Below, in pieces: positions 6,365-28,106 of a stretch of 52,588 nt of DNA. This DNA is from Methanobacteriota archaeon (lineage in GTDB: Archaea; Thermoplasmatota; Thermoplasmata; RBG-16-68-12; SOIM01). The stretch spans positions 179,215 to 231,802 of the forward strand of contig CP070767.1 in the NCBI GenBank assembly GCA_020345725.1. Reading direction: 5' to 3'. The translations under genes and the position numbers were made by a program. Every line of letters starts with the position of its first letter. The first letter of the stretch is position 1. The notes below the pieces were generated by a model. That model made no database searches. It was not told where the DNA came from and saw nothing but the letters and a program-made list of their open reading frames with translations.

Positions 6365-6369
6365 GGAGA

Positions 6370-7812
6370 ATGGGAAAGACAATTGCGATTCAACCCGTAT
6401 CTAGGATTGAAGGACACGCCAAAGTTGAGATCGATTTGGACGATGCTGGCAATGTAGCCGACACCCGAGTTCACACTGTCGAGCTTAGAGGGTTCGAAAG
6501 ATTCTGTATTGGCCGACCCGTGGAGGAACTCCCGAGGATAATGACAAGGATCTGTGGGGTTTGTCCCTGGTCCCATCATCTCGCTTCTGCGAAAGCAACG
6601 GACGCAGTCTTCGGTGCCCAGATCCCTGAAGCGGGAAGGAAACTGCGAAGGCTATGCAACAGCATTGCCTACATGGAGGAGCACATTCTGCACTTCTATT
6701 TCCTGGCAGGACCGGACTTCGTAATGGGACCCGATGCGGACTACTCGGTGAGAAATGTCATCGGGATAGCGCAGAAGTTGCCAGATGTTGGAAGGAAAGT
6801 GGTAAGGGTAAGAGCTCTTGCAGCGCATATGTTGGAGATACTGTCTGGTAAGGCCATTCATCCAACCGCAGCGGTTCCTGGTGGTTTTAGCAAGCCACTG
6901 TCCGCGGCCGAGAAGGATAAGCTAGTCCCCATGGCAGAGGAGTGTCTGGACCTTGCGAAGTTCTCTATCAAGTACGCAAAAGAGGAGATCTTCCCCAAGT
7001 ACATCGATGCCGTGAAGACCCTCGGCGTGATCAACACTGGATTCCTTGGCACTGTCACGGATGATGGAACCCTGGACCTGTATGAGGGCAAGCTGAGGAT
7101 GATGACCCCGGACGGAAGCTACGAGGACTTCCCGGTCGAGAGCTACACGGACTACATTGGAGAGCACATCGAGCCCTGGACCTATCTCAAGTTCCCATAC
7201 AACAAGAAACAGGGGAACTTCTCAATGGATTTGGAAAGTCCAATGGGCATATACAGGACCAATACTCTGGCTCGAAACAACGTCGCTGACAAGTACGCGA
7301 CCCCGCTCGCACAGGCAGAGTTCCAGGAATTCAGAAGCGAGTTCGGTCGACCGGCACAAGCAACGTTGCTGTATCACTGGGCAAGACTCATCGAGCTTCT
7401 CTACAATGCAGAGCATGCGATGGAACTTCTCAACGACCCAGACATCTTGAGCACCGATACCAGAATACCAGTTCAGCCAAGGGCAGCCCGTGGCATAGGA
7501 CACGTCGAGGCACCCCGAGGAACTCTGATACACGACTACGAGACAGATGAGAACGGCATGGTCACGAATGTGAACCTAATCGTTGGAACAACTCACAACA
7601 ACGCACCAATCAACATGTCAGTGAAGCAAGCCGCTCAGAGCTTGATCAAGGGTGGTCAGTACGATGAGGGAATACTCAACATGGTCGAGATGGCGATCAG
7701 AGCCTACGACCCGTGTCTGAGCTGCGCAACACATAACCTGGACGGAACAATTGCAGTGAAACTCACAATCAGGGACTCGGACGGAAACATAGTGGACGTT
7801 CTGAAGAACTAG
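6370..7812 (+). CDS. mvhA: F420-non-reducing [NiFe] hydrogenase large subunit (480 aa from ATG 6370; the ORF track starts at GTG 6361)
   Basis: RIEGH, the N-terminal Ni-ligand pair RICGVCPWSHH and the C-terminal DPCLSCATH, followed by a 25-aa tail of the kind removed by the endopeptidase. SD GGAGGTGA at 6357-6364. Confidence 0.92.
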   Translation: MGKTIAIQPVSRIEGHAKVEIDLDDAGNVADTRVHTVELRGFERFCIGRPVEELPRIMTRICGVCPWSHHLASAKATDAVFGAQIPEAGRKLRRLCNSIAYMEEHILHFYFLAGPDFVMGPDADYSVRNVIGIAQKLPDVGRKVVRVRALAAHMLEILSGKAIHPTAAVPGGFSKPLSAAEKDKLVPMAEECLDLAKFSIKYAKEEIFPKYIDAVKTLGVINTGFLGTVTDDGTLDLYEGKLRMMTPDGSYEDFPVESYTDYIGEHIEPWTYLKFPYNKKQGNFSMDLESPMGIYRTNTLARNNVADKYATPLAQAEFQEFRSEFGRPAQATLLYHWARLIELLYNAEHAMELLNDPDILSTDTRIPVQPRAARGIGHVEAPRGTLIHDYETDENGMVTNVNLIVGTTHNNAPINMSVKQAAQSLIKGGQYDEGILNMVEMAIRAYDPCLSCATHNLDGTIAVKLTIRDSDGNIVDVLKN

Positions 7813-7854: not shown

Positions 7855-8271
7855 CTACATCTTGTAAGGACTGGGACCCAGTTGCTTCAGAGTATCTGTC
7901 ATCTCTTGGACAACTCTCGCGAATTTGTCCCCCTCTGATGCTGAAACCCACTCCAATTTGAACCTCTCAGGCTCAAGACCGAAGTCCTCAAGCATGAGGT
8001 CAATGGCCTCCGCCCTTGCCTCTGCCCTCAGGTTTCCCTCGAGATAGTGGCAGTCCCCCGGATGACATCCGCACATCAGAACACCATCAGCTCCCTTTGT
8101 CAGTGCATTGATCACCAGATTGGGATGCACCATTCCAGAACACATGACCCGGATTATCCTGATGTTCGGAGGTTATTGAATTCGAGACGTTCCAGCCAAA
8201 TCCGCACCAGCATAAGAACACCAGTTGCAGAGGAATCCTATGATCAGAGGTTCATAATCCTGTTCCTCCAA
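7855..8271 (-). pseudogene. mvhD: MvhD-domain gene interrupted by an in-frame TAA (8173-8175) at a conserved Tyr codon. The downstream ATG-ORF (7855-8145) lacks the CNWC motif.
   Basis: Manual translation gives (TTG)[50 protein letters not shown]...GCHPGDCHY. The three paralogues in this window have Y at the stop position. The only available start is a TTG abutting the hdrA TAG. Confidence 0.8.
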
Positions 8272-11200
8272 CTATGCCACCCCCAAACAAGCGTCAATCA
8301 TAGCATTTAGCTGGTCGAGCTTGAATTTCCATATGAATATACCTTCTTTGGGACATGTAGCTTGGCAACAACCGCAGCCCTTGCAGGCCGCTTCATTCAC
8401 GTCCACAGTCTTCTTAACCGAACCGCTGCTCATGTACTCTATCAGCGTTATCGCATCGTATGGGCAAGGTTCCACACAGTAGGCGCATCCATCGCAGTTC
8501 TTGTCCACCACGTGCGATATGGTGGGCTCGATTTCTATCTCGTCCTTGGATAGAATCGTTGCAGCCCGGGCAACTGCACCGTAAGCCTGAGCTATGCTCT
8601 CATCAACGAACTTGGGTCCGTGGGCAAGGCCGCACAGGAAGACTCCTTCAGTAGCGAAATCGACTGGTCTGAGTTTCATGTGTGCCTCAAGGAAGAAGTT
8701 GTCCTTTGTCAAAGGTATCTTCAGCATCTGTCCCACCTCTTCGCTGTCAGGCTGTGGAAGAACCGGGACGCTTAGAACCAGGAAGTCTGTTTCAATCTTC
8801 AAAGGCTCGTCCAACACCGGGTCCCTGAGTGTAATCGTTAGACCGTCACCTCCAGGAACCACGTTCGGCTCATTGTCATCGTCATATCGTACGAACACAA
8901 CTCCCTTTTCGGAAGCCTCTTGGAAATGGTCCTCGTTGAAGCCATATGTTCTGATGTCCTTGTAGAGAATATACACGTCCGCGTCTGGGTTCTTTTCCTT
9001 GATCTTCAGTGCGTTCTTGATAGCTTCAGAACAGCATATCCTGCTGCAGTTGGGTCTTTCCTCGTTTCTGGATCCGACACACTGTATCATTGCTATCTTG
9101 CTCTTACTAGCAAGGTCAATCTCTCCCTTCGTCATCTTCTCCTCGAACTCTAGCTGGGTCATTACGTTCGGGTTCTGTCCGTAGAGGTATTCGGATGGTT
9201 TGTGCTCTATTCCTCCCGTAGCAACAATCACCACACCGTGGTCTATTGTCTCTCCTCCTTCGAGAGTTGTGGTGAAGTTCCCAATGTAACCGTCTATCTT
9301 CTCGATTTTACTTCCGATGTGTACGTTCACTTTTGGATTCTCATTGACCCGTGTAGTAATCTCTTCCAATTTCTTCTGGGGGTCCGCCTTCGCAAGGAGG
9401 TGATGAATCCTCTTTAGATTTCCACCCAGTTCGTTTTCCCTTTCAACAAGATGTACATCGAATCCTTGGTCAGCAAGACCCAAGGCAGCGGTCATTCCGC
9501 TGAGGCCTCCTCCTATCACCAACGCGGTCTGGTTCACAGGTAGTTTCCCCTTCTGCAAGGGATCAAGGAGGGCAGTCTTTGCCACAACCATTCTGACAAG
9601 GTCCTTTGCCTTCTCAGTAGCCTTCTCCTTCTCGTGCATGTGAACCCACGAGCCCTGATCCCTTATGTTGGCCATCTCGAACAGATAGGGGTTCAATCCA
9701 GCCTCGTGAAGGGTCTCCTGAAACAACGGTTCATGGGTTCTTGGACTGCAGGAGGCAACTATCACTCTATTCAGATTCTCCTCCTTTATGACCTCCTTCA
9801 TCTTTGTCTGTGTGTCGTCCGAACAAGTGAAGAGGTTCTCGTCCGCGAAGACCACGTTGGGCAATGTCTTGGCGTATTCCACAACCCCAGGAACGTCCAC
9901 AACACTGCCTATGTTTATTCCGCAATGGCAGATGAAGACGCCAATCCTTGGCTCCTGACCAGTAACATCGATCTCTTCTGGATATTCTTTCTTCTGTGTC
10001 AGAGTATCTCTTGCCGATGACACCACATTTGCCGCTCTCGCAGCTGCCCCAGATGCCTCAGCAACTGTCCCAGGTATGTCCTTTGGACCTGCGAATGCTC
10101 CTCCGACGTATATGCCCGGCCTGGATGTGTCGAGCGGATCGAATAGCTTGGCCTCCACGAAGTTGTGTCCGTTAAGCTTGAATCCCAACCGGTGGCTCAA
10201 TATCTCTGCTTCCACGGGAGGGTTCATAGCTATTGACAGCACAACCATGTTGAAGACCTCTTGGACCACTTCACCCTTCTCTACATAGGAAACTATCAGA
10301 TCTTCTGTGTCTGGATCCTCCTCAACTCCCGAGACCCTTGACCTGACGAATCTCACTCCAGCCTCATCCTCAGCCCTGATGTAGTACTTCTCGAACTCCT
10401 TTCCGTACGCTCGCATGTCCATGAAGAATATGGTCGGCTCGATATCCTCGAAGTGCTCCTTTGCGATTATTGCTTCTTTGAGTGCATACATGCAGCAAAC
10501 AGCAGAACAGTATGTGTTACCCTTCGCCTTATCCCTGGAACCCACACACTGGATCCACGCCACCTTCTTAGGTATGTCTCCGTCTGAAGGTCTGACAACA
10601 GTACCCAGGTGAGGGCCAGTCGCACTCAACATCCTCTCAAACTCGAGGCTTGTGAGGACGTTCTTGAACCTTCCATATCCATATTCGCTTCTGATAGTCG
10701 GGTCGAACTTCGATGAACCTGGAGAGAGCACAATAGATCCAACTTGGAGCTCCAAGATTTTCTCCTTCTGATCGTATTCGACAGCCTCTGCCTTACACTC
10801 TCCCTCGCAGATTCCACAGCCAATGCACTTCTCCCTGTCTATCATGTAGACCAAGGGGACTGACTGAGGATACCTCACATAGACAGCCTTCCTGTGCCTC
10901 AATCCCTCGTTGAACTCGTCAATCGCTTCGGTGGGGCATTTCTCGGCACAAACACCGCAACCTGTACACTTCTCTTCATCGATGCGCCTTGGGTATTTCT
11001 TCAAAGTCACCAGGAAGTTGCCAGCTTCACCGTCAATCATCTCTACTTCCGCATTTGTAATGAGCTCAATGTTCTCATGGCGTCCTGTCGCAACGAGCTT
11101 GGGAGCCATTATGCACATAGCGCAGTCGTTGGTGGGGAACGTCTTGTCCAGCTGGGACATGACTCCGCCGATGCTTGGCCCTCTTTCCACCAGGTAGACC

Positions 11201-11289
11201 TTGAATCCTGCATCTGCCAGGTCGAGTGAGGACTGCATTCCGGAAATGCCGCCTCCGATGACCATCACTGCTCCTACGGGCTCTGCCAT
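8272..11289 (-). CDS. hdrA: Double-length HdrA-like flavo-iron-sulfur protein (1005 aa from ATG 11289; the ORF track starts at 11319)
   Basis: N-terminal half: GGGISGMQ, FPTNDCAMC, an inserted ferredoxin (CTGCGVCAEKCP, CIGCGICEGEC), CVGSRD and CCMYALKEA. C-terminal half is a complete canonical HdrA: VFICHCGINIG, ASCSPRTHEP, second GGGLSGMT, CVGSRNEERPNCSRICC, FFLEAHMKLRP and a C-terminal CDGCAYCVEPCP / CKGCGCCQATCP. SD GGGAGGTGA precedes ATG 11289. Confidence 0.9.
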   Translation of the reverse strand: MAEPVGAVMVIGGGISGMQSSLDLADAGFKVYLVERGPSIGGVMSQLDKTFPTNDCAMCIMAPKLVATGRHENIELITNAEVEMIDGEAGNFLVTLKKYPRRIDEEKCTGCGVCAEKCPTEAIDEFNEGLRHRKAVYVRYPQSVPLVYMIDREKCIGCGICEGECKAEAVEYDQKEKILELQVGSIVLSPGSSKFDPTIRSEYGYGRFKNVLTSLEFERMLSATGPHLGTVVRPSDGDIPKKVAWIQCVGSRDKAKGNTYCSAVCCMYALKEAIIAKEHFEDIEPTIFFMDMRAYGKEFEKYYIRAEDEAGVRFVRSRVSGVEEDPDTEDLIVSYVEKGEVVQEVFNMVVLSIAMNPPVEAEILSHRLGFKLNGHNFVEAKLFDPLDTSRPGIYVGGAFAGPKDIPGTVAEASGAAARAANVVSSARDTLTQKKEYPEEIDVTGQEPRIGVFICHCGINIGSVVDVPGVVEYAKTLPNVVFADENLFTCSDDTQTKMKEVIKEENLNRVIVASCSPRTHEPLFQETLHEAGLNPYLFEMANIRDQGSWVHMHEKEKATEKAKDLVRMVVAKTALLDPLQKGKLPVNQTALVIGGGLSGMTAALGLADQGFDVHLVERENELGGNLKRIHHLLAKADPQKKLEEITTRVNENPKVNVHIGSKIEKIDGYIGNFTTTLEGGETIDHGVVIVATGGIEHKPSEYLYGQNPNVMTQLEFEEKMTKGEIDLASKSKIAMIQCVGSRNEERPNCSRICCSEAIKNALKIKEKNPDADVYILYKDIRTYGFNEDHFQEASEKGVVFVRYDDDNEPNVVPGGDGLTITLRDPVLDEPLKIETDFLVLSVPVLPQPDSEEVGQMLKIPLTKDNFFLEAHMKLRPVDFATEGVFLCGLAHGPKFVDESIAQAYGAVARAATILSKDEIEIEPTISHVVDKNCDGCAYCVEPCPYDAITLIEYMSSGSVKKTVDVNEAACKGCGCCQATCPKEGIFIWKFKLDQLNAMIDACLGVA

Positions 11290-11290
11290 T

Positions 11291-12064
11291 CTAGTCACCT
11301 CCCACCCTAAGAGCAACATAATAGGGAGTCATTCCTTCTATATGGTCAACTGCAAGGAGGTTCTTCTGTCTCAGAGTTGCGATGTGCTCCACAATTCTGT
11401 CTGTTGGGAGTTTAGTGACCTGGGACAGCTCCTTTGCTGAAGCAGGTTTGCTTGATGTTATTTCAAGAATCAGGCTTCTTCGGAATTCATCCTCGATTGC
11501 AGCGTCTATGATCTCTCGCATCTCATCTTCTGTTTTCTTCTCTCCATAGACGTTTCCATCCTCTATCATTCCGACTTCGTGCCCAAGAAGGGCTCTGATA
11601 CGGAAATCAAGGGAAGTGTCAACTGCCGCTCCGACCCTGCTTGCCAGGTCCGAGTCTTCCATCACCTTTGAAGGACCCAATTCCTTTATCTTCTCGGTGA
11701 ATTCAGCGACCGTCGAGGCAAACCTCTCTCCCTCTGAAGCGCTTATCCACTCAAGACGGAATCTGTCCACTTCCAAGCCCGCTTTCTCCATGAGCCTCCT
11801 TATGACAAAGGCCCTCTTCTCTGTGTGATAGTTGCCCGAAATATAGTGACAATCGCCGATGTGACATCCACCTATCATGATTCCGTCCGCACCCTCTTTG
11901 AAAAGTGTCAGGACTATCATCGGGTCTACCCGGGCACTGCACATGACTCTGATGATTCTAATCTCTGGAGGATATTGGTATCGGCTCACTCCGGCCAAAT
12001 CGGCACCCGCATACGAGCACCAGTTGCAGAGAAAACCCACTATCTTAGGTTCGAACTCAGTCAT
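11291..12064 (-). CDS. mvhD: MvhD-domain protein with a C-terminal winged-helix-like domain (257 aa)
   Basis: [21 protein letters not shown] and GGCHIGDCHY (MvhD/FlpD domain). After a ~70-aa linker comes SAKELSQVTKLPTDRIVEHIATLRQKNLLAV (HTH-like). The ATG overlaps the stop of the upstream hdrA part (TGATG). Confidence 0.85.
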   Translation of the reverse strand: MTEFEPKIVGFLCNWCSYAGADLAGVSRYQYPPEIRIIRVMCSARVDPMIVLTLFKEGADGIMIGGCHIGDCHYISGNYHTEKRAFVIRRLMEKAGLEVDRFRLEWISASEGERFASTVAEFTEKIKELGPSKVMEDSDLASRVGAAVDTSLDFRIRALLGHEVGMIEDGNVYGEKKTEDEMREIIDAAIEDEFRRSLILEITSSKPASAKELSQVTKLPTDRIVEHIATLRQKNLLAVDHIEGMTPYYVALRVGGD

Positions 12065-14025
12065 CACATCGCCCCCTGGAGAATGCTCCTACCTTGAGCA
12101 AGTAGCTGATCATCTGTGTAATTCATCATCTGGATAGCTTTCTCGGGGCATGTCGCTCCGCAGCAACCGCACCCCTTGCAGGCCGCAGCAAGAACCTCTG
12201 CGACTCCGTCATCACTCAACCTGATGGCACCATAGGGGCAATTGGCTTCACACGTTCCACAACCGGTGCAGATTTCTGGGTCGACCTGGGCTAGTATCGC
12301 TTCCGCTTGAATGAACCCTCTGGCCATTGGAATCGCAGCACGAGAAGCAGTCCCCAGTCCTTGTGCAACGCTCTCCGTGATATCCGCAGGTCCCCTCGCT
12401 GTTCCGCACACAAAGATACCATCTGTCGCGAAGTCAATAGGTCTTAGCTTCATGTGGGCCTCAAGGAAGAACCCGTCCCGTCCGATAGGGATCTTGAGCT
12501 TCTTCGACAGGTCCGCGGCATCAGGAGGAGCGATCAAGGGAGTTGCCAGCACAACCATGTCGGCCTGCAGCTTCCTTTCTGTCTTGAGTGTCTCATGGTA
12601 ATAGTTCACGACCAACTTGTCCCCTTCCTGAGTTACCTTGGGAAGGTTGTCAGTCGTGTATCTTACGAACCTGATTCTCTTCTCCCTCGCCTTGTTGTAG
12701 TAGACCTCGTGGTCTGCTCCGTATGTTGTCACATCCCTGTTGAATATGGTTATCTCCGGTCCTCCAGTTGGAGCGGGGCCAGGAGCCGCCTCGCCCTCCG
12801 CTGAAACCATCCGCCTTCTTCTCCTTCTCCTCGATGATATCTCAGGGACGGAAACATCCACCTCTACTCTCTCGGCACCTTCTTCGCCCATTATCTCTGC
12901 AAAATTCTCTGTGATATACAGCGCGTTCTTTATCGAGATGACGCAGCAAATCCTCGAGCAGTAAGACTTATCCTGTCCCCTTGACCCAACACACTGGATG
13001 AAGGCTACATTCTTGATCTTGGGGAGCTTGCCGCTCTTACAAAGGATCTCAAACTCTGTCAGCGTCACTACATTGTCGTACATCCCGTATCCATAGAGTC
13101 CTTCAGGTATGTACTCCAACGCTCCTGTTGCTACAATGATCGTGCCCACCTTGACTTCCTTGCTGGAACCGTTGGTGACGATGGTTGTGTCGAAGTTTCC
13201 GATGAACCCACTCACGGACTCCACCTGCGAGTTCAAATGAACTGTGATATTCTCATGTGCCTGGACGTGTTCAATTAGCGGTTTGATCGTGTCCTCGGCA
13301 CTCTTGTCCCCCAGGGACAAACTGTTCAAGTTCCTTGTGAAACCTCCCAAAACACCCTCCTTCTCAACCAGATGGACATCAAAACCCTGGCGTGCAACGG
13401 AGAGGGCCGCGCTCAATCCTGCCACCCCACCTCCTATGACTAGAGACCGGGGAACAACGTCCACCTTCATCTCTTCTTGCGGAACCAACAGGGCAGCTTT
13501 GGAAACTGAGGATTTGATCAGGTCCTTCGCTTTCCGGGTCGCATCTTCCTTTTCCTTCATGTGGACCCAGGAACACTGCTCTCTGATGTTCGCAAACTCA
13601 AACAGATACTTGTTGAGACCTGCTTCCTCGCAAACTCCCTGGAACAGAGGTGCGTGCGTTCTGGGTGTGCAGGACGCCACTATGACTCTGTTCAGCTTGT
13701 GCTCTTTGATAGCATCTCGTATTGCAGTCAATCCGTCCTCCGCACAGGTGTAGAGGTTATCTCTGGCGAAAGCGACGTTTGGCAGTGTTTTCACATATTC
13801 CACAACAGCTGGAACATCCACGAATCCACCTATGTTCGTGCCGCAGTGGCACACAAATACTCCAATCCGCAGTTCTTCTGAGTCTGGTGTTGGCGGCGTT
13901 TCAGGAGCCTCCTCATCCGGTTCAACTGGGGGTTCGGCAATTGGTTCTTGCTGAACCACTGGAGTCTGTGGGGCCTGCTCTTCTTGCTCGATTGGAGTTT
14001 CCGGAGTCTGCTCCTCTGGCTCCAT
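12064..14025 (-). CDS. hdrA: HdrA, canonical-type C-terminal portion of a split long HdrA (653 aa) with a Pro/Glu-rich N-terminal tail and a poly-Arg insertion
   Basis: VFVCHCGTNIGG, ASCTPRTHAP, GGGVAGLS, CVGSRGQDKSYCSRICC, FFLEAHMKLRP, CTGCGTCEANCP and CKGCGCCGATCP. Residues 1-50 are low complexity (PETPIEQEEQAPQTP...). Seven consecutive Arg at 12811-12831. Confidence 0.9.
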   Translation of the reverse strand: MEPEEQTPETPIEQEEQAPQTPVVQQEPIAEPPVEPDEEAPETPPTPDSEELRIGVFVCHCGTNIGGFVDVPAVVEYVKTLPNVAFARDNLYTCAEDGLTAIRDAIKEHKLNRVIVASCTPRTHAPLFQGVCEEAGLNKYLFEFANIREQCSWVHMKEKEDATRKAKDLIKSSVSKAALLVPQEEMKVDVVPRSLVIGGGVAGLSAALSVARQGFDVHLVEKEGVLGGFTRNLNSLSLGDKSAEDTIKPLIEHVQAHENITVHLNSQVESVSGFIGNFDTTIVTNGSSKEVKVGTIIVATGALEYIPEGLYGYGMYDNVVTLTEFEILCKSGKLPKIKNVAFIQCVGSRGQDKSYCSRICCVISIKNALYITENFAEIMGEEGAERVEVDVSVPEISSRRRRRRRMVSAEGEAAPGPAPTGGPEITIFNRDVTTYGADHEVYYNKAREKRIRFVRYTTDNLPKVTQEGDKLVVNYYHETLKTERKLQADMVVLATPLIAPPDAADLSKKLKIPIGRDGFFLEAHMKLRPIDFATDGIFVCGTARGPADITESVAQGLGTASRAAIPMARGFIQAEAILAQVDPEICTGCGTCEANCPYGAIRLSDDGVAEVLAAACKGCGCCGATCPEKAIQMMNYTDDQLLAQGRSILQGAM

Positions 14026-15332
14026 TAACCAGTCACCCCCTTTGCAAGAACGGTTTCAACGGCTCTAGCTGCTGCGGCTGAAGCTTCGGCGACAGCCTCA
14101 GGTATGTCCATTGGTTCTCTGCAGTATCCTGCCAGATACACTCCTTCTCGAACAGTATCCATTGGCGCAAGTATCCTATCCTTGGATTCAAAGAACTTAA
14201 ACTCAGTAAGCGGAATGCCCAACATTTCCGCGATCTTGATTGCATCCGGCCTGGGAACCAAGGTTGTCGCGAGGACCACCATATCGAATTCCTCCTTCTC
14301 CGGTCGGCCTGCAACGTCGTACACTACGATTGGATTGTTATTCTCAGGATTCTCCTGGACGGTGGCATCCGAGTTGATGTATCTCACACCGTAGTCATTC
14401 TTGGCCCGCTCAACATATTCAAAGAAACCCTTCCCGAAGGCCCTGAGGTCCTTGTAGAATATCGTTGAATCGATATCGTCATGATGCTCTCTTGCGAGCA
14501 TGGCTTCCTTGGTAGAGAACATACAGCACACAGAGCAGCAGTATGCATGCCCCAATTGTGGGTTCCTTGAACCAACACACTGAATGAATGCGAGCTTGTG
14601 TGGTCTCTCTCCATCTGACCTTCTCTTCATCTCTCCCCCTGTAGGGCCAGATGCGTTGATCATCCTCTCATATTCCATGCCAGTGAAGACATTGGGATAT
14701 TTCCCATAGCCGTACTCTGATGCCGGAGTTGGGTCCCAGATGTCATACCCTATAGCCACGATTATTGAACCAACATCAAGTACGACCTCTTCGTCCTTCT
14801 GATCAAAATCAACTGCCTCTCTTTCACAGAGGATCTTGCAGGCTCCACATTTCTCCTTAATGAACCAAGTGCAGTTCTCTTTGTCTATTGTGACCACCCT
14901 GGGCACTGCCTGTGCGAATGGCATGTAGATTACCTTTCTCTCACCAAGACCTTGATCAAACTCGTTCGGAACCTTCTGCGGGCATTTCGCAACGCACTCT
15001 TCGCACCCAGTACATTTCGTCTCATCGACATATCGAGCTTTTCTCAGCACCTTCACCTTGAACTTCCCGGCTTCACCATCGACCCCCACGACCTCTGAAT
15101 AGGTCAGAACATCGATGTTTGGATGGCCGTAACAGTCTGCCATCTTGGGTGCAAGGATGCAGATGGAACAGTCATTCGTTGGGAACGTCTTATCCAGCTG
15201 AGCCATTCTACCCCCAATGCTCGGGGTCTTCTCAACGAGGTAGACCTTCCCGCCCTTGTCTGCTATGTCTAGCGATGCTTGAATACCGGCGATTCCGCCT
15301 CCAATCACCAATACGTCTGTGGACACATTCAT
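14025..15332 (-). CDS. hdrA: HdrA-like / QmoA-like flavoprotein, N-terminal portion of a split long HdrA (435 aa)
   Basis: GGGIAGIQ, FPTNDCSIC, CTGCEECVAKCP, CGACKILCE, CVGSRN and CCSVCCMFSTKEA. Collinear with the N-terminal halves of the three fused copies. The TAA stop overlaps the next ATG (TAATG). SD GGGAGGT. Confidence 0.88.
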   Translation of the reverse strand: MNVSTDVLVIGGGIAGIQASLDIADKGGKVYLVEKTPSIGGRMAQLDKTFPTNDCSICILAPKMADCYGHPNIDVLTYSEVVGVDGEAGKFKVKVLRKARYVDETKCTGCEECVAKCPQKVPNEFDQGLGERKVIYMPFAQAVPRVVTIDKENCTWFIKEKCGACKILCEREAVDFDQKDEEVVLDVGSIIVAIGYDIWDPTPASEYGYGKYPNVFTGMEYERMINASGPTGGEMKRRSDGERPHKLAFIQCVGSRNPQLGHAYCCSVCCMFSTKEAMLAREHHDDIDSTIFYKDLRAFGKGFFEYVERAKNDYGVRYINSDATVQENPENNNPIVVYDVAGRPEKEEFDMVVLATTLVPRPDAIKIAEMLGIPLTEFKFFESKDRILAPMDTVREGVYLAGYCREPMDIPEAVAEASAAAARAVETVLAKGVTG

Positions 15333-15430
15333 ACCTCCCTAGAATTCGGGTAACAATACTGATTATTCTGATTGTTGGGACATGTGATAGGCCTCATCCG
15401 ACCTCCCCTTTCCTTGAAATAGTCAAATCG

Positions 15431-15440
15431 AATATAAAGA
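15431..15440 (-). promoter_or_regulatory. TATA-like box (TCTTTATATT on the minus strand) in the only sizeable spacer of the hdrA array
   Basis: The 122-nt gap 15333-15454 contains TTTATAT about 100 nt upstream of the hdrA-N ATG. This may be an internal promoter. Confidence 0.3.
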
Positions 15441-15454
15441 CTACTCTAATTGGC

Positions 15455-15898
15455 TTATGCAACAACTTCCTCTCCTTCCCCCAGACTCTCCTTCTTTGTC
15501 TTCTTCCAATCTTCCCTTGACATCTCGAACAGTGGAGTTGTGAACCGCTCTTTCTTCTTGAACTCCCGTACGTATCTTTGACAATCAGGATAAGTGCACG
15601 GATCGCAGTGTTTCTCCTTGCAGGCAAGCTCCACGACAACATATCTTCGGTCCGCTTCGATTCGCCCCTTCTTCTCTACGGTGCGGAGCTCGAACATACT
15701 TGTAGTGAATGGCTTCTTCTTGCCCATCTCCCGCGTGAATCTCTGACAATCAGGATAGGTGCACGGATCGCAATGCCTCTCCTTGCAGGCGAGTTCCAGC
15801 AACATGTATCTTCGGTCAATCTCCTTGTCAGTTCCCTTCTGAGTTTTCCCAGGGTTCTTTGACTTGGGTTTCTTCTTTCTTTCTTTGCTCTTCGGCAT
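15455..15898 (-). CDS. Very basic, internally duplicated Cys-rich protein (147 aa); two copies of DRRYxxxELACKE(R/K)HCDPCTYPDCQR(F/Y)
   Basis: The ATG is 3 nt after the stop of the mvhD-hdrCB fusion. It has a 55-aa tandem repeat, each carrying C-x4-C-x2-C-x4-C plus a His, and Lys-rich termini. No family recognised. Confidence 0.75.
   Translation of the reverse strand: MPKSKERKKKPKSKNPGKTQKGTDKEIDRRYMLLELACKERHCDPCTYPDCQRFTREMGKKKPFTTSMFELRTVEKKGRIEADRRYVVVELACKEKHCDPCTYPDCQRYVREFKKKERFTTPLFEMSREDWKKTKKESLGEGEEVVA
15563..15817 (-). repeat. Intragenic direct repeat: two ~90-nt copies (15563-15652 and 15728-15817), period 165 nt
   Basis: Hand alignment shows a block nearly identical in both copies (GACAATCAGGATA(A/G)GTGCACGGATCGCA...CTCCTTGCAGGC...ATCTTCGGTC). 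It encodes the duplicated Cys motif. Confidence 0.85.
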
Positions 15899-15901
15899 CC
15901 C

Positions 15902-17551
15902 TCAATCCTCCAAAGCCTCTGCTACAGCAATCGTGAAATCCTTCAGGGGGATCTCCACCATTTCTCTTTCAACTGGGATCTCATCCCTGACTGAACAATC
16001 CAAATGAACGTAACACTTGGGACAAGCGGTAAGAACTGCGGCCGAATTGGTCTTCTTGGCTTCCACCATTCTTTCTATCTGCATCTTCTTAGCAGTTCCA
16101 TCACAGTTCATCCATGCACTCACTCCGCAGCATGCACCCTTGTCTCGAATTCTCTCCATCTCCACCAGGTTCATTCCATTGATCTTCGAAATTGCGTCCC
16201 TTGGGGCGTCATATATTCCACAATGCCTGGAAAGTCTGCAAGGTTCGTGATAAGTGACGTTCAAATCAAGCCCATCCTTGAATTTCAGCTTCCCAGCGTC
16301 CATCAGTTCACCTATGTACTGGGACATGTGGATCATCCGGAATTCCAAGTCCCCGGCCATTGCCTGATAGTCAATATTAAACGTCCTGAAACACTCCGCA
16401 CAGGTGTAGACAACAGTCTTGGCGCCGCTCTTCCGAATCAGGTCCAGATTGTGGTTCATCAGGTTCTCAACATTTGCCTCGTCGCCGGTCCAATTCAAGT
16501 CATGACCGCAACACTTCTCCCCATTGCTTACCACGGGTACGACCCCCGCCTTGTTCATGATCTTGACGGCGCTTCGGTTTATCTCACTAAGGTTCAATTC
16601 TCTGTCTTGGAAAATGATGTCCAGATGGGGCGTGCAGCCCGTGAAATAGAAGACTTCACCAGTGTCCGCGATTTGTAGGCTCTCATCCACCCAACCCAAC
16701 CTCTTCTGTTCGAAGTCTGTGTTTGCCATTATCCTCATGGTGGAATGCAGAAGCCCACCCTGTGAACAGACTGGAACAACCCCCAACATGGAAGCTTCGA
16801 CCCTCATACCTCTAATGAATTCAGCGTAGTCCACCTTGTATGGACACATAGCACTGCATTCAGCGCAGGTTGTGCAGGACCAGATGTCCTTCTCTCGTGC
16901 CAAATCGGTTGCAACTCCCTCTAGAGCTTTCACCACAATCAATCTGGGAGCGAACTTCTCATCGTTATTGGCTACTGAGCATACACTGGTGCATTTCCCG
17001 CATTCAACACAGTCAAAAGCTCCAGTGTCTTGTATGAGCTCTTTGATCATCACTGCACTACCGGCCTGCTCATCTGGAGGTTCTTTCTCTGTGAACTTCA
17101 GCGGATTCGGACCAAGTTCAGCAATCTGCTGATTGAATTCGTTCATGACTTCCGCGAACTTGGATCCCTCAGAGGCGGAAATCCATTCCAGTCGAAATCT
17201 ATCTGAGCCAACTCCCAGAATATCGAGGAGCTCTGAAACCATCTTTGCCCTCTTCTCCGCCTTCTCGTTTCCTGAGACATAGTGGCAGTCACCTATGTGG
17301 CAACCAGCCACAAGAACACCATCGACACCGCTCTCAAGAGCGTCAATAATGAACGAGGGCTCCACTCTGCCTGAACACATGACTCGAATGATCTTGATAT
17401 TTGGTGGATACTGCATTCTGGAAACGCCAGCCAGGTCCGCACCAGCATATGAACACCAATTGCAGCAGAAGGCAATTATGTTAGGCTCGAAGGGTGCGTC
17501 GGTGGCTGCTACCTGTTCCGTTTCTGCTTCCTGCATTTCTTCACCTCTCAT
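15902..17551 (-). CDS. MvhD-HdrC-HdrB triple fusion protein (549 aa)
   Basis: N-terminus: [31 protein letters not shown] (MvhD). Middle: CVECGKCTSVCS and CTTCAECSAMCP (HdrC-like 2x[4Fe-4S]). C-terminus: two CCG domains (FYFTGCTPH...KCCGHD and YHEPCRL...ACCGVSAW...CPKC). Confidence 0.88.
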   Translation of the reverse strand: MRGEEMQEAETEQVAATDAPFEPNIIAFCCNWCSYAGADLAGVSRMQYPPNIKIIRVMCSGRVEPSFIIDALESGVDGVLVAGCHIGDCHYVSGNEKAEKRAKMVSELLDILGVGSDRFRLEWISASEGSKFAEVMNEFNQQIAELGPNPLKFTEKEPPDEQAGSAVMIKELIQDTGAFDCVECGKCTSVCSVANNDEKFAPRLIVVKALEGVATDLAREKDIWSCTTCAECSAMCPYKVDYAEFIRGMRVEASMLGVVPVCSQGGLLHSTMRIMANTDFEQKRLGWVDESLQIADTGEVFYFTGCTPHLDIIFQDRELNLSEINRSAVKIMNKAGVVPVVSNGEKCCGHDLNWTGDEANVENLMNHNLDLIRKSGAKTVVYTCAECFRTFNIDYQAMAGDLEFRMIHMSQYIGELMDAGKLKFKDGLDLNVTYHEPCRLSRHCGIYDAPRDAISKINGMNLVEMERIRDKGACCGVSAWMNCDGTAKKMQIERMVEAKKTNSAAVLTACPKCYVHLDCSVRDEIPVEREMVEIPLKDFTIAVAEALED

Positions 17552-17566
17552 ACACGGCCTGGCTGT

Positions 17567-20500: not shown

Positions 20501-20635
20501 CACTAGGTAGACCTTCAAATCGGTATCTGCAAGATCAAGAGCGCACTGGGTGCCAGAGATTCCTCCGCCAACAACAAGAACAGCCCCGACCTTATCTGAG
20601 ATCCTCTCTATCACCTTCTCTGAGGTCCTCTCCAC
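17567..20635 (-). CDS. hdrA: Double-length HdrA-like flavo-iron-sulfur protein (1022 aa, GTG start)
   Basis: Same two-half architecture as 8272-11289: GGGISGTQ, FPTHDCAMC, CTGCGLCTQRCP, CIGCGICETQC, then VFVCHCGINIGG, ASCTPRTHAP, GGGLSGMT, CVGSRVPERPYCSRICC, FFFEAHMKLRP, CRGCGRCVETC and CKGCGACSVAC. Confidence 0.9.
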   Translation of the reverse strand: MERTSEKVIERISDKVGAVLVVGGGISGTQCALDLADTDLKVYLVDSSPRIGGAMSQLDKTFPTHDCAMCIMAPKLVATGRHHNVELLTNSKVEKIDGEIGHFRVTVKRKVRCVDEEKCTGCGLCTQRCPVEVPDEYNKGLKVRKAIYMKYPQAVPPAHTIDQEACIGCGICETQCEAGAIDFTEEERPIEIDVGAIILAPGFTEFDLKLKREYGYGRYPNVISSLELERMLSPTGPYGGVVLRPSNGEVPENVAFIQCVGSRDVQVGNTYCSSVCCMFAIKEATIAEEHTPGLKSHIFFMDMRAFGKEFDEYYVRAEKEYGLQFTRNQRVASIEENPETHDLTIWYSEKGEMRRKVFNLVVLSVGTDSPKSAQEVAETFGIELNKHDFCETDIFSPLDTKVPGIFVCGAFSSPKDIPDSVSQASGAAAKAMSIVASERGKLIEKKEYPPEIDLTGQEPRIGVFVCHCGINIGGVVDVPGVVEHVKELPNVVHAEANLYTCSQDTQKNIKEKIKEHNLNRVIVASCTPRTHAPLFQSTIMEAGLNAHVFEMANIRDQCSWVHSSLPKEATEKAKLLVSMAVEKSRLLVPLPEIMIEVEKSALVVGGGLSGMTVAQELANQGIKVHLVEKEKDLGGLMKRIHYGLEGEDVQTFLSKLKDSVTGNPLIETYTETQLKDVSGCVGSFDCVTESNGGTKEFRVGTIIVATGGLEYKPTEYLYGQDQRVMTQLEFENMLNESDGMEAKTIAMIQCVGSRVPERPYCSRICCTEAVKNALKAKEVNPESNIYVMFRDMRTYGFREDFYNKAADEGVIFTRYSEEDKPVVEVGQDGSLEVAVLDQILNEEILIKPDILVLSAATVSNPDNVPLSQMLKVPLNKDGFFFEAHMKLRPIDFAADGIFLCGLAHLPKFFEENIAQASGAASRAMTILAKDALEAEATIAVVDEDKCRGCGRCVETCEFNAPELVEREDGTKVSHIVEALCKGCGACSVACCNKSIQMRGFTSDQIIAMMRKASAPATMQEET

Positions 20636-20646
20636 GGATTCTGATG

Positions 20647-21651
20647 CTATTCAACCACCCCCGAAAGCAGTCCTCTTACACAGACCGAGAAGTGGCACAC
20701 GTTGCTTCTTCTCCTCTCGCAGTTGTAACATCTCAATGTAAGCAGCAGTTCCCTCACTATCCATTTCTTTGTCGCTTCATCTACGTCTGGAAGACTGGCA
20801 ATACTCATCTGGATGCTCTCCTTCTGAACCTTCGCCCATAGAGGTAAGGTGGAGATCTCCTGCCCCTCTTCTATCTGGGAAATATACAAAGGCGACGTGC
20901 CTTGGATTTCCGTCATCGTAACAAGTCCTCTATCGCGCAGTAGTACAATGTGCCTCAGAACATCCCTCTCCGGCAGATTAACCCTCTCGGATATCTCTTT
21001 CACAGATTGAGGCTGTCCTTTGGTTGCGAGAAGGACCCTGCATCTCCCATATTCCTCCAATATCGCCTTTTCCACGACTTCGTGGACCTTTCCGTTCGGA
21101 TTCATACGATTGAATGCATTGGGTTTGGTCTCAAGCAGGTGTTCCTTGTTCATCAACAGACTCAGTCTGAAATCGTCGACTGCACTGCGGGCCACATACA
21201 AACCTTCCATTATGTCGATGTCAGGAGCATCACCCGCAACAGGATTAGGTCCCAATTCGGTCACCGTGTTTACGAACTCCGTCACAATCTCTGCAAAAAG
21301 CTTGCCTTCTGAAGCGGACACCCATTCCATTCTCAATCTCTCTGGCTCAAGACCAGTGAGTTCTAGTAGTCTCCTTAGTGTGTCTATTCGCCTCGCTGCG
21401 TGATTGTTCCCCTCTTGATAATGACAATCTCCTGGATGACAACCGCAGATTAGCACTCCATCGGCACCTCTGAGGAAGCCTTCGATAACCACGGCTGGGT
21501 CGACACTACCACTGCACATTACTCTTATGATCCTCAAGTTAGGTGGATAGGTGAATCTGGAGACTCCGGCCAAATCGGCTCCTGCATAAGAGCACCAGTT
21601 GCAGAGGAATCCGACAATCTTGGGAGTGAAACCGTTGTCCTGCTTCTCCAT
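20647..21651 (-). CDS. mvhD: MvhD-domain protein with a winged-helix-like domain and an extra ~70-aa Cys-containing C-terminal extension (334 aa)
   Basis: [21 protein letters not shown] and CGCHPGDCHY. HTH-like SVKEISERVNLPERDVLRHIVLLRDRGLV. The extension, absent from the 257-aa paralogue, ends in CYNCERRRSNVCHFSVC. Confidence 0.8.
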   Translation of the reverse strand: MEKQDNGFTPKIVGFLCNWCSYAGADLAGVSRFTYPPNLRIIRVMCSGSVDPAVVIEGFLRGADGVLICGCHPGDCHYQEGNNHAARRIDTLRRLLELTGLEPERLRMEWVSASEGKLFAEIVTEFVNTVTELGPNPVAGDAPDIDIMEGLYVARSAVDDFRLSLLMNKEHLLETKPNAFNRMNPNGKVHEVVEKAILEEYGRCRVLLATKGQPQSVKEISERVNLPERDVLRHIVLLRDRGLVTMTEIQGTSPLYISQIEEGQEISTLPLWAKVQKESIQMSIASLPDVDEATKKWIVRELLLTLRCYNCERRRSNVCHFSVCVRGLLSGVVE

Positions 21652-21652
21652 C

Positions 21653-24600
21653 TCAGCCCCCCTCTATAGCGGCTGTCAGCTGGGCAATGATTTGGTCGCG
21701 GGAGAAATGCTTCAAGGTGATCGCTCTCTCTGGACATCCTGCTGCACATGTACCACATCCTTTGCACAGCGGTTCTGAGACTTTGGACTTGTTTGTTTCC
21801 GGATCTACTTCTATAGCTCCGAATGGACAGATGAACTCACATGTCTTGCACCCAACACAGAGGTCCTCATTCACGCAAGACACTACGCCCTCCGATTCAA
21901 TCTCGTCCTTGCTTAATATCGTCAAGGCTCTCGCAGCTGCAGCCATCGCCTGGGATATGTTCTCATCCACGAACTTGGGCGACTGGGCCAAACCGCAGAC
22001 AAAGATGCCATCTGTTGCGAAATCTACTGGTCTCAGTTTTGCATGAGCTTCAAGGAAGAACCCATCCTTGCTGAGTGGCACCTTCAGTATCTCGGATAGG
22101 CCATCATTGTCGGGATTCGGCCGAGTTGCGGCGTTCAGAACCAGGAGATCTGGCTTTATGAGGAGGTCAACCATGAGGAATTTGTCCTTTACCCTTACCT
22201 CAAGTGGCTCTCCTTGTGTGACAATCGGTGGGCTATCCTCTTCGAACCGAATGAATATGACACCCTCTTTGCTGGCTTCTTTGTAGTACTTCTCTCGGAA
22301 ACCGTACGTGCGTACGTCCCTGAAGACCACATAGACAGAGCTGTCTGGGAACCTCTTTTTCAATTCGAGTGCATTTCCAATAGCTGTAGTGCAACAGATT
22401 CTGCTACAATTAGGATATTCCTCATTCCTCGAACCCACACACTGTATTATGACCACTTCCTTTGGTGCCTTGAAATCACCTTTGTACATCCTTTCTTCGA
22501 GCTCGAGTTGAGTGATGACTCTGGAATCTTCACCATACAGATACTCCTCGGGCTTGTATTCCACCGCTCCGGTAGCGACAACGATCACACCATGGTCTAT
22601 TTCGCTGCCATCTGATAACCTGCTTTTGAAATTGCCAACATATCCGCTCGTTCTCTCCAGTTCTGTCTTGAGATGAACATGTATCTTTGGGTTGTTCTGG
22701 CAGGCATCGCTCTTCTCCTTCAGAATCGCCTGTGGATCTTCTCCCGTGAGTGAATGGGTGACTCTCCTCATGTTGCCGCCCAGTACATCCTCCTTCTCAA
22801 CTAGATGGACATCAAAACCCTTCTTGGCAATCTCCAAGGAAGCTGTCATGCCACTGAGTCCTCCACCTATCACAAGAGCTGACTTGGTGACGGAATGAGG
22901 GATTTTCTCCAGAGGCCCCAAGAGCCCAGCCTTGGCAACTGCCATACGAACAAGTCTCTTGGCCTTCTTGGTTGCTTCCACGTGATTGTCCGAATGGACC
23001 CAAGAACACTGTTCCCTGATATTGGCCATTTCAAAGAGATAGGGATTTAGTCCACCTTCCCTGATTGTTTCCTGAAAGAGTCCCTCATATGATCTTGGAC
23101 TGCAGGATGCCACTATGACCCTGTTCAGATTGTGTTCCTCTATCCTCTCCCGGATGCTCTGTTGGGTGTCAAGGGAGCAAGTGTAGAGATTGGCTTCGGC
23201 ATGCACAACGTTAGGAAGTGTCTTGGCATACTCCGCCACATCAGGAACATCCACAACTCCACCGATGTTTATGCCGCAGTGACAGATAAAGACGCCCACT
23301 CTGGGCTCGACACCCTCGATATCTTTTTCAGCTGGATATTCCTTCTCTTGAAGGTCATTCTCACTCTTCTCTGGAAGTGAACCGGCCATCGATGCCGCTC
23401 CGCTGGCTTGGGCAACCGTATCGGGTATGTCTCTTGGTCCAGAGAGCATTCCGGATACATAGACTCCGGGAACAGAGGTCTCAAGGGGAGTGAACATGCC
23501 GGTTTCACAGAAGTCAAATTCGTTAAGTGAGATGCCCAACATCTTGGAGATGTCCTCAATATTCTCCGGCGGCTCTAGGCCAACAGAAAGGACAACAAGG
23601 TCGAAGACCTCTTCTCGAATCTCCCCCAACTCTGAGTAGGTGATGACAAGTCTATCATCATCGAGGGTCTCCCCCACGGATGCAATTCGGTTATTCCGTA
23701 TTATCCCGACTCCATACTCTTCTTCGGCCCTGACTCGGTAATCCTCGAACTCCTTTCCAAATGCTCTCATGTCCATACAGAATATGCGCGATCGGATGTC
23801 TGGATGGTGGTCATGTGCATCGATTGCCTCCTTTAAGGCGTACATGCAACATACCGATGAACAGTAGATGCCTCCATAGACTTCGCTCCGAGAACCTACG
23901 CACTGTATGAAGGCGATATTCCTGGGAGGCTTTCCATCTGAAGGTCTCTGAATCTCCCCCATTGTGGGTCCTGTGGCGCTCAACATCCTCTCCAATTCGA
24001 GGCTGGTGATTACATTCGGGAGAACACCGTATCCATATTCAGAAATCGCTCTGGGATTGTATGGCTTGGCACCGAACCCAATGATGATCGACTCGACATT
24101 GAGAGTGACTTCTTCAGGCTTCTGTTCAAAGTCGATTGCCTCGGCTTCGCAGAATCTCTGACAAGCCCGGCACTTTCCAGTCCGGAAATAGGTGCAGTTT
24201 TTCTCATCAATCACAAAGGTAGTGGGTATAGCTTGCGGATACATTCTGTAGGCGGCTTTTCTCTCAGACTGGTCCATGTCGAACTCATTTGGCACCTTTA
24301 CTGGGCACTTCTCCGCGCAAACACCACAGCCTACGCACTTCTTGTCGTCCACGTACCGGGGGTGATTAAGAACGGTGACTCGAAAATCACCTTTCTGTCC
24401 CTCGACATGTGTAATTTCGGAGCTCATCATCAGTTGTATGTTGGGATGTCTTCCCACCTCCACGAGCTTGGGAGAAAGGATGCACATAGCACAGTCGTTC
24501 GTTGGGAAGGCCTTGTCCAGTTGAGCCATTCTTCCCCCCAGGGCCGGGGCTTTTTCGACAATGGTGACGCGAACGCCTGCATTTGCCAGGTCCAATGCTG

Positions 24601-24664
24601 CCTGAATGCCGGCTATGCCACCTCCAACTATCAGGACTCCCTGTTCCATTGAACATGACTCCAT
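21653..24664 (-). CDS. hdrA: Double-length HdrA-like flavo-iron-sulfur protein (1003 aa); first gene of the array
   Basis: GGGIAGIQ, FPTNDCAMC, CVGCGVCAEKCP, CRACQRFCE, then VFICHCGINIGG, ASCSPRSYEG, GGGLSGMT, CVGSRNEEYPNCSRICC, FFLEAHAKLRP, CVGCKTCEFICP and CKGCGTCAAGCP. Confidence 0.9.
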   Translation of the reverse strand: MESCSMEQGVLIVGGGIAGIQAALDLANAGVRVTIVEKAPALGGRMAQLDKAFPTNDCAMCILSPKLVEVGRHPNIQLMMSSEITHVEGQKGDFRVTVLNHPRYVDDKKCVGCGVCAEKCPVKVPNEFDMDQSERKAAYRMYPQAIPTTFVIDEKNCTYFRTGKCRACQRFCEAEAIDFEQKPEEVTLNVESIIIGFGAKPYNPRAISEYGYGVLPNVITSLELERMLSATGPTMGEIQRPSDGKPPRNIAFIQCVGSRSEVYGGIYCSSVCCMYALKEAIDAHDHHPDIRSRIFCMDMRAFGKEFEDYRVRAEEEYGVGIIRNNRIASVGETLDDDRLVITYSELGEIREEVFDLVVLSVGLEPPENIEDISKMLGISLNEFDFCETGMFTPLETSVPGVYVSGMLSGPRDIPDTVAQASGAASMAGSLPEKSENDLQEKEYPAEKDIEGVEPRVGVFICHCGINIGGVVDVPDVAEYAKTLPNVVHAEANLYTCSLDTQQSIRERIEEHNLNRVIVASCSPRSYEGLFQETIREGGLNPYLFEMANIREQCSWVHSDNHVEATKKAKRLVRMAVAKAGLLGPLEKIPHSVTKSALVIGGGLSGMTASLEIAKKGFDVHLVEKEDVLGGNMRRVTHSLTGEDPQAILKEKSDACQNNPKIHVHLKTELERTSGYVGNFKSRLSDGSEIDHGVIVVATGAVEYKPEEYLYGEDSRVITQLELEERMYKGDFKAPKEVVIIQCVGSRNEEYPNCSRICCTTAIGNALELKKRFPDSSVYVVFRDVRTYGFREKYYKEASKEGVIFIRFEEDSPPIVTQGEPLEVRVKDKFLMVDLLIKPDLLVLNAATRPNPDNDGLSEILKVPLSKDGFFLEAHAKLRPVDFATDGIFVCGLAQSPKFVDENISQAMAAAARALTILSKDEIESEGVVSCVNEDLCVGCKTCEFICPFGAIEVDPETNKSKVSEPLCKGCGTCAAGCPERAITLKHFSRDQIIAQLTAAIEGG

Positions 24665-26134: not shown

Positions 26135-26145
26135 TACCTTGTCTC

Positions 26146-28013: not shown

Positions 28014-28031
28014 TTAAAGAACAAGTGTTTG

Positions 28032-28040: not shown

Positions 28041-28106
28041 TGATTGGGATGTGCAGTCTCGAGAAGGCATGTTCCAATACATTATCAGTCGAATGACCCA
28101 TATGCG

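Follow-up and report, generated by a model that had tools for sequence, protein, structure and literature searches.

The window analysed here is a stretch of 52,588 nucleotides (nt) from contig CP070767.1 of a Methanobacteriota archaeon belonging to the Thermoplasmata. On its minus strand, at 7855-24664, lie ten closely packed genes that very probably encode four paralogous HdrA-type cores for flavin-based electron bifurcation, of the same kind as BamE and BamF of class II benzoyl-CoA reductase (BCRII). Each core would be a fused HdrA pseudo-heterodimer with a single bifurcation site, the equivalent in the third module being kept as two genes, and the adjacent MvhD-type [2Fe-2S] protein would be its electron-entry adaptor. 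The building block is known and structurally characterised; what is new is its multiplication into a conserved Thermoplasmata array with undescribed accessories, no paper describing the four-module array or its accessory features having been found in the literature on Thermoplasmata and Methanomassiliicoccales genomes. The components of the array, in the direction of transcription, are as follows (aa, amino acids; wHTH, winged helix-turn-helix; ORF, open reading frame).

21653-24664, minus strand: A1, long fused HdrA, BamE-type, 1003 aa (Pfam/NCBIfam and alignment to the HdrA of PDB entry 5ODC)
20647-21651, minus strand: D1, MvhD/FlpD with helical linker, wHTH (BamF-like) and a Cys-containing tail of ~70 aa, 334 aa
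17567-20635, minus strand: A2, long fused HdrA, 1022 aa, GTG start
15902-17551, minus strand: D2, MvhD-HdrC-HdrB triple fusion, 549 aa (FlpD, Fer4_8, two CCG)
15455-15898, minus strand: X, basic Cys-rich protein, 147 aa (no Pfam/NCBIfam match)
15333-15454, minus strand: spacer of 122 nt between X and A3n, read from the sequence
14025-15332, minus strand: A3n, free-standing HdrA of the N-half type, 435 aa
12064-14025, minus strand: A3c, free-standing HdrA of the C-half type, 653 aa
11291-12064, minus strand: D3, MvhD with linker and wHTH (BamF-like), 257 aa from ATG
8272-11289, minus strand: A4, long fused HdrA, 1005 aa from Met11 of a 1015-aa ORF
7855-8271, minus strand: D4, short plain MvhD whose reading frame contains a TAA

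The junctions between these genes measure, in order, 1, 11, 15, 3, 122, -1, -1, 1 and 0 nt with ATG starts (a GTG start of D3 would make the A3c-D3 junction -4 instead of -1). The original prediction had read this layout from the letters alone; its ten co-directional minus-strand ORFs and their junctions are borne out by the ORF list, and its assignment of domains to the modules agrees with Pfam and NCBIfam scans.

Architecture of the long HdrA proteins and their adaptors

By Pfam and NCBIfam, A1, A2 and A4 contain two Pyr_redox_2/NAD_binding_8 (flavin/Rossmann) regions and several Fer4 domains; each chain has two TrxR-like FAD domains, each with GxGxxG and a CVGSR...C..CC cluster motif. The E-values of the hidden Markov model matches reach 0, so that chance is no issue for the domain calls. 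The N half of A1 (approximately residues 1-452) consists of TrxR1 with its FAD site, C58-x2-C61 and an inserted 2x[4Fe-4S] ferredoxin, and the C half (residues 453-1003) of an N-terminal iron-sulfur (FeS) domain, TrxR2 with its FAD site and a C-terminal 2x[4Fe-4S] ferredoxin. The two halves are ~30% identical to each other; the N half is 40-50% identical to residues 143-511 of the 5ODC HdrA, and the C half corresponds to its residues 3-153 and 514-647. The reference sequence of the 5ODC HdrA was rebuilt from the PDB-search alignment, and all halves were then aligned to it. In this alignment, the N halves and A3n possess the FAD domain, FPTNDCxxC (C58/C61 of A1, corresponding to Cys194/Cys197 of 5ODC), the inserted ferredoxin with its two clusters and the CVGSR...C..CC cluster, and the C halves have neither the FPTNDCxxC motif nor the inserted ferredoxin domain. 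The C half is therefore not a complete canonical HdrA, as had originally been claimed. The halves are complementary, each polypeptide having a single copy of each accessory domain that the canonical homodimer has twice, and the proposal that proteins of ~1000 aa are covalent asymmetric HdrA pseudo-dimers is supported by the domain scans, the PDB alignments and the 5ODC alignment.

The residues expected to matter are conserved. The expected cluster cysteines, C58/C61 and K278 are invariant in 13 diverse long HdrA proteins, and all of 33 long HdrA proteins have a lysine after the CC motif of their N half, whereas the equivalent position of the C half is occupied by K, G, A, T or S; this fits a single bifurcating flavin, namely the TrxR1 FAD only. 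The AlphaFold2 model of A1 (pLDDT 76.8, pTM 0.79) has HdrA (5odc_A) as its best PDB match. Sequence and fold searches of the PDB, which does not yet include the BCRII structures of the preprint discussed below, returned only canonical HdrA of ~650 aa and no fused HdrA. The NCBIfam models score 716-754 bits against the long HdrA proteins for HdrA (cut-off 1400) and 979-1021 bits for HdrA2 (cut-off 1100), and the matches of both models are broken into three stretches.

All four partners, D1 to D4, have a full FlpD/MvhD domain by Pfam (FlpD E-values of 2.5e-54, 2.5e-56 and 7.2e-53 for D1, D2 and D3), and these domains are 57-62% identical among each other. D1 also matches HTH_20, an ArsR-type domain (4.3e-07). 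Past the wHTH of D1, at residues ~265-334, there is a C-terminal tail with four cysteines (CYNC...CHFSVC), which in an alignment is absent from D3 and from BamF of Desulfosarcina. D2 continues into an HdrC-like Fer4_8 domain and two HdrB-like CCG domains, both CCG motifs being complete; it is 30% identical to Desulfosarcina BamD, and is the predicted equivalent of BamF and BamD/HdrD joined in one chain. Fusions of the MvhD-HdrC-HdrB type are frequent in metagenomic data of Thermoplasmata, with no fewer than 120 full-length cluster representatives at 55-84% identity, of which the named ones belong to the Thermoplasmata.

Relation to known HdrA systems

BamE of BCRII in Geobacter metallireducens is a fused HdrA dimer of ~1000 aa that has been resolved by cryo-electron microscopy (preprint 10.64898/2026.04.10.717634, April 2026). 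The same preprint (10.64898/2026.04.10.717634) reports that the N-terminal TrxR1 FAD of BamE bifurcates, beside a conserved lysine (Lys280) and near the Cys59-Cys62 pair; that the second FAD is judged to be structural and not to bifurcate; that BamE also carries an inserted and a C-terminal ferredoxin domain; that BamF, an adaptor of the MvhD type, exceeds MvhD by more than 100 residues and docks the input module with its winged helix-turn-helix; that BamD is the HdrBC/HdrD-like high-potential outlet; and that BCRII is a dimer of BamED cores. K278 of A1 lies two residues off Lys280 of Geobacter BamE, compared by residue number only.

A locus of Desulfosarcina variabilis (L049 among the loci compared here, which are numbered with the prefix L) encodes AOR-like, small, HdrD-like, long HdrA, MvhD-like, and NuoE-, NuoF- and NuoG-like proteins, and its gene order matches bamBCDEFGHI. 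Desulfosarcina BamE is 43-49% identical to A1 to A4 and collinear with them over ~1000 positions (49% over 994 aligned positions for A1). BamE shares with the long HdrA proteins of the window the Cys-x2-Cys unit in first place, the two FAD domains, and the inserted and C-terminal ferredoxins; BamF, when the Desulfosarcina protein is aligned, shares the MvhD-linker-wHTH build of D1 and D3, and its gene lies directly downstream of the long HdrA gene as the adaptor genes do in the window; and the high-potential partner, BamD, is likewise HdrD/HdrBC-like. Two in-frame TGA codons of L049, one in BamE at the equivalent of HdrA Cys197 (FPTNDCSM-TGA-IL, ~10155) and the other in BamF at the second cysteine of a CxxC (CHW-TGA-AYG, ~13375), presumably encode selenocysteine; the window has cysteine at both positions. 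The window nevertheless differs from BCRII in having MvhGA and HdrCB as neighbours instead of BamB (a tungsten AOR), BamC and BamGHI, and in having four tandem paralogues rather than one, of which one is split and one has its adaptor fused to HdrCB. A tblastn search with BamB, BamC, BamG, BamH and BamI of Desulfosarcina gave no match in the window, which is not a benzoyl-CoA reductase locus; only BamD-, BamE- and BamF-like parts are present.

The neighbouring genes that supply the hydrogenase and the free heterodisulfide reductase subunits were assigned by a domain scan of the flanks, in agreement with the earlier claim that one mvhGA and one free hdrCB lie beside the array.

5441-6364, plus strand: mvhG, [NiFe] hydrogenase, convergent on the array (domain scan)
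6361-7812, plus strand: mvhA, [NiFe] hydrogenase, convergent on the array (domain scan)
4645-5223: hycI, adjoining hdrCB
3750-4283, minus strand: hdrC, free (Fer4_8)
2897-3745, minus strand: hdrB, free (two CCG domains)

MvhA has kept both [NiFe] ligand motifs (RICGVCPWSHH and DPCLSCATH). All six subunit types of the canonical (MvhADG-HdrABC)2 complex (PDB 5ODC), i.e., MvhA, MvhG, MvhD, an HdrA-type protein, HdrB and HdrC, are thus represented in the window. The difference lies in HdrA, which in the canonical complex is a symmetric homodimer of ~650-aa chains with two bifurcation sites, whereas in the window a single chain of 1003-1022 aa replaces the dimer.

Other archaeal relatives have been described. 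In Methanomassiliicoccales, HdrA is of greater length and has two predicted FAD sites; its gene adjoins mvhD, mvhG and mvhA, hdrBC being located elsewhere (Borrel et al. 2014, PMC4153887). These organisms belong to the Thermoplasmata lineage too, and module 4 (A4 and D4) together with mvhGA resembles their long HdrA-mvhDGA unit; however, the cultured methanogens have one hdrA copy compared with four long copies in the window, where mvhGA runs opposite to the array and the corresponding module has an interrupted MvhD. Anaerobic methanotrophic (ANME) archaea have a fused HdrA3/HdrA4 and tandem HdrA5/6 and HdrA12/13, and an HdrA occurs with MetFV-HdrABC-MvhD in Moorella; Cys197 and the N-terminal domain are lost complementarily between paired HdrA units, for which an internal heterodimer was proposed (Chadwick et al. 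2022, PMC9012536). The tandem unfused HdrA pairs of ANME archaea parallel module 3 (A3n and A3c). The ANME and Moorella proteins differ in that they begin with the unit bearing the N-terminal domain (as worded in PMC9012536), whereas those of the window and BamE begin with the Cys197 unit, and in that their genomic partners are FdhAB-like proteins and MetFV. Single archaeal assemblies contain as many as six copies of fusions of two HdrA domains (mSystems 2024 survey). Given these studies of 2014 and 2022 and the preprint of April 2026, the original statement that no characterised system has such a layout is outdated.

The long HdrA is itself widespread. Thousands of protein clusters match the collinear protein of ~1000 aa, with more than 598 genomic matches across archaea and bacteria, and the lineages that have it include Bathyarchaeia, Thermoplasmata, Methanomassiliicoccales, Archaeoglobi, Asgard archaea, Desulfobacteraceae, Chloroflexota, Syntrophobacterales and others. 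Of 80 genomic loci fetched, nearly all have an MvhD gene immediately after the long HdrA gene, and among these loci Thermoplasmata, Bathyarchaeia, Asgard archaea and a few bacteria show tandem units, two to five in number. The HdrA-MvhD pairs lie beside hdrCB and mvhGA in Bathyarchaeia and Thermoplasmata, and beside bam genes in bacteria.

Conservation of the array and condition of its modules

The long HdrA paralogues are 48-57% identical over their full length. Copies 1 and 3 had been estimated by eye to be identical at about three quarters of their first ~90 residues, but the measured value is 54% over the first ~94 residues; the broader claim that the copies are true diverged paralogues holds, by the full-length identities and by the phylogenetic tree. 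In this neighbour-joining tree, which is rough and carries no support values, the paralogues form orthologous sets, with A1 grouping with the first and A4 with the last long HdrA of other arrays, and the split pair forms a deep separate clade. The array is predicted to stem from old duplications, with three paralogue groups and the gene order conserved across metagenome-assembled genomes (MAGs) of Thermoplasmata. Five loci (L002, L004, L007, L008 and L015) share a block of long HdrA, MvhD-HdrCB fusion, small Cys-rich protein, split HdrA (~432 and 622 aa), MvhD-wHTH (~270 aa), a last long HdrA (~1012 aa) and a short, intact MvhD (151-154 aa). Orthologues of A4 in L002, L004, L007 and L015 are 60-62% identical to it, and orthologues of D3 in Thermoplasmata loci have ~270 aa. 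A close relative, an independent 182-kb JGI contig (L001), repeats the gene order; its orthologues are 76-91% identical, and it has an additional long HdrA, which is a fairly recent copy of A1 (76% identical). Among the loci compared, an orthologue of A2 was found only there (at 13964-17089, 86% identical). The conserved paralogue groups and gene order argue for specialised, non-redundant modules. In L002, L007, L008, L009 and L015 the array is preceded, ~5-10 kb upstream, by a gene for an HdrA-like protein of 680-720 aa, hdrC, hdrB and a short mvhD; the window has no such HdrA-like gene, and its hdrCB is displaced beyond the inverted mvhGA.

An artefact of assembly, i.e., a collapsed or chimeric repeat, is scarcely conceivable as the origin of the array. 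Although the sequence derives from a MAG, copies at 48-57% identity are too diverged for mis-assembly, the order is repeated on the independent JGI contig and in several other MAGs, and base composition is even along the array region. A1 is identical to NCBI UCD92524.1 (from a 1.99-Mb contig labelled 'Methanobacteriota archaeon'), and D1 matches UCD92523.1.

The division of module 3 is a conserved state. A3n has TrxR1 with its FAD site, the Cys-x2-Cys and the inserted ferredoxin; A3c has a Pro/Glu-rich leader, the N-terminal FeS domain, TrxR2, whose FAD domain carries a poly-Arg insertion of 45 aa, and the ferredoxin of the C terminus; the two genes overlap by 1 nt. Orthologues of A3n, 59-91% identical, are always encoded by a separate gene (L001, L002, L004, L007, L008, L015 and L017). 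The insertion of A3c (residues ~395-440), an acidic stretch followed by RRRRRRR, has been kept in the split-HdrA orthologues of L001, L002, L007 and L015 but is absent from the fused paralogues.

Between modules 2 and 3 lies the gene of X, a basic protein of two repeats, each C-x4-C-x2-C-x4-C. X has no match in Pfam or NCBIfam, and an exhaustive profile search of 1.84 billion proteins gave no link to a known family; that database holds 27 cluster representatives of the X family, to which 18 close homologues belong. The family includes single-repeat forms of 70-80 aa, and a member also occurs at L082 772-996. In the loci compared, the X gene is always located between genes of the D2 and A3n types. 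An AlphaFold2 model of X built from 14 sequences was unusable (pLDDT 37). The 122-nt spacer that follows X contains a TATA-like TTTATATT and, just before the ATG of A3n, GGGAGGT, and may be an internal archaeal promoter; a sigma-70 promoter scan (4 sites, 14 expected) and the count of terminator-like sequences (15, 14.7 expected) apply a bacterial model that is uninformative for an archaeon.

Module 4 appears, from its coding sequence, to be damaged in this MAG. The nonsense codon that had been predicted in its mvhD is present, D4 having an in-frame TAA at 8173-8175, and orthologues of D4 in related loci are intact (151-154 aa). A4 has glycine (DQGSWVH) where all 32 of the other long HdrA proteins compared have cysteine. 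These defects would be specific to the lineage, reflecting either decay of the module or consensus errors. TAA is neither the pyrrolysine nor the selenocysteine codon; recoding of the D4 stop was rejected, since the codon is not TAG or TGA and TAG is the commonest ordinary stop (the 41 genes of the window end in TAG 21 times, TGA 16 times and TAA 4 times). A read-through fusion of A4 and D4 is unlikely: the two are in frame across a TAG here, but their orthologues overlap out of frame. Pyrrolysine-using Methanomassiliicoccales would be expected to avoid amber codons; with TAG as its commonest stop, the window gives no sign of such avoidance.

Directly upstream of the array, at 25058-28610 on the minus strand, are genes for NadA-like, DUF7714, radical-SAM/SPASM and 167-aa proteins, a group that is syntenic in L001 (3050-6602). 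Further upstream (28673-35489, minus strand) are proteins of 1220 and 1046 aa with FG-GAP, Big_13 and PKD repeats, presumably surface proteins unrelated to the array. At 40047-44004 on the minus strand, a 914-aa protein has FAD_binding_4 and FAD-oxidase_C domains after ~460 unannotated N-terminal residues, and next comes an HdrD-like protein of 402 aa (Fer4_8 and two CCG domains); the two make up a second CCG-type oxidoreductase pair, unrelated to the array, which resembles lactate/glycolate dehydrogenase-HdrD systems.

Predicted electron path, alternatives and significance

By homology to the cryo-EM structures, an electron path can be proposed for the modules. Electrons from MvhAG (oxidising H2) or from other donors encoded elsewhere would enter through the MvhD-type protein, MvhAG being the obvious donor for at least one module, and would arrive at the TrxR1 FAD, to be split there. 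The N half would supply TrxR1 with the bifurcating FAD, the invariant lysine, the Cys-x2-Cys, the inserted ferredoxin and the [4Fe-4S] cluster leading to HdrC-type subunits; the C half would contribute the N-terminal FeS domain, another FAD that probably does not bifurcate, and the two-cluster ferredoxin at the C terminus, which receives electrons. The high-potential branch would leave by the TrxR1 cluster and end in a disulfide reductase of the HdrC/HdrB type, which would be either the free HdrCB (2897-4283) or the HdrCB fused into D2, and the low-potential branch would lead from the N-domain cluster by way of the inserted ferredoxin domain on to ferredoxin. The winged helix of D1 and D3 would be a docking element, as in BamF, rather than a transcription factor. 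It is plausible that the four modules serve different partners. Several points weigh against the reading as BamE/BamF-type cores with this path. The path is carried over from a complex of bacteria at 43-49% identity, a figure that refers to BamE of Desulfosarcina and not to that of Geobacter; the tree that separates the paralogues is a rough one; and the window has only one hydrogenase and one free HdrCB, with no donor or acceptor evident for modules 1 and 3. The module boundaries are also ambiguous: D3 could pair with A4 instead of A3, because Bathyarchaeia have a single long HdrA with MvhD-wHTH upstream and plain MvhD downstream, followed by hdrCB and mvhGA, and D3-A4-D4 with mvhGA could likewise be one unit.

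A rather improbable alternative is that all the proteins form one large hetero-oligomeric complex, in which different long HdrA proteins form pairs among themselves, in the way that BamE dimerises, and have MvhAG and HdrCB in common. It would explain why the order b-D2-X-A3n-A3c-D3-e-D4 (b and e being long HdrA genes) is conserved as a block in Thermoplasmata with tight or overlapping junctions, and why only one mvhGA and one free hdrCB are in the window, and the dimer of BamED cores in BCRII offers a precedent; yet every long HdrA has a full set of domains and its own adaptor, and the variation of module number from 2 to 5 between lineages is easier to reconcile with separable units. About equally doubtful is the idea that the paralogues are redundant isoenzymes or partly decaying copies, kept by drift or differential expression and lacking distinct partners. 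The two defects of module 4 (the TAA in its MvhD and the glycine at an otherwise invariant cysteine) and the fairly recent extra A1 copy of L001 (76% identical) are what such redundancy would leave behind, but the paralogues diverged long ago (48-57% identity), distant MAGs have separate orthologues of each, their adaptors differ in architecture (plain, wHTH or HdrCB fusion), A1 to A3 retain all cluster ligands, and the split state and poly-Arg insertion of module 3 are conserved.

QmoA and QmoB are flavoproteins derived from HdrA, and the N half resembles QmoA in having no HdrA N-terminal domain; both points would suit the suggestion that the long proteins are QmoA-QmoB-type fusions, here taken to work in a quinone-linked, non-bifurcating chain. 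This suggestion fared poorly and is very unlikely to be right. The best curated models are HdrA2, HdrA and HdrA_Methbact (700-1020 bits), with no Qmo model among the top matches of the long proteins; the qmoC model, whose cut-off is 300 bits, reaches 43.9 bits on D2 and touches only its HdrC-like part; no membrane-bound QmoC-like gene and no apr genes were found in the window; and the neighbours of the array are mvhGA and hdrCB. A more speculative variant of bifurcation, to be thought unlikely though less so than a Qmo-type chain, would make the sub-cluster of D2, X and the split HdrA with its poly-Arg insertion, together with a long HdrA, an unrecognised bifurcating system with X as its dedicated small redox partner. 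X might be a dithiol/disulfide substrate of the fused HdrB-like domain, in a role like that of DsrC, or a new carrier of a metal cluster; apart from any role of X, several HdrA cores might assemble into one multi-site machine. If the proposal for X and D2 is true, it would be a case of Hdr-type bifurcation independent of CoM-S-S-CoB.

HdrA-type modules are among the main routes to low-potential ferredoxin in anaerobes. Nothing is overturned by the reading of the array as four BamE/BamF-type cores, their building block and wiring having already been described. That four diverged cores with differing adaptors stand next to a single hydrogenase and a single HdrBC suggests that the cores can be exchanged like plug-in units to suit different donors or acceptors. 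If this is true, the Thermoplasmata array, together with the homologous pairs of Bathyarchaeia and Asgard archaea, would constitute a natural set of variants for partner specificity in HdrA-based bifurcation, and would aid the interpretation of the many generically annotated long hdrA copies in uncultured archaea.

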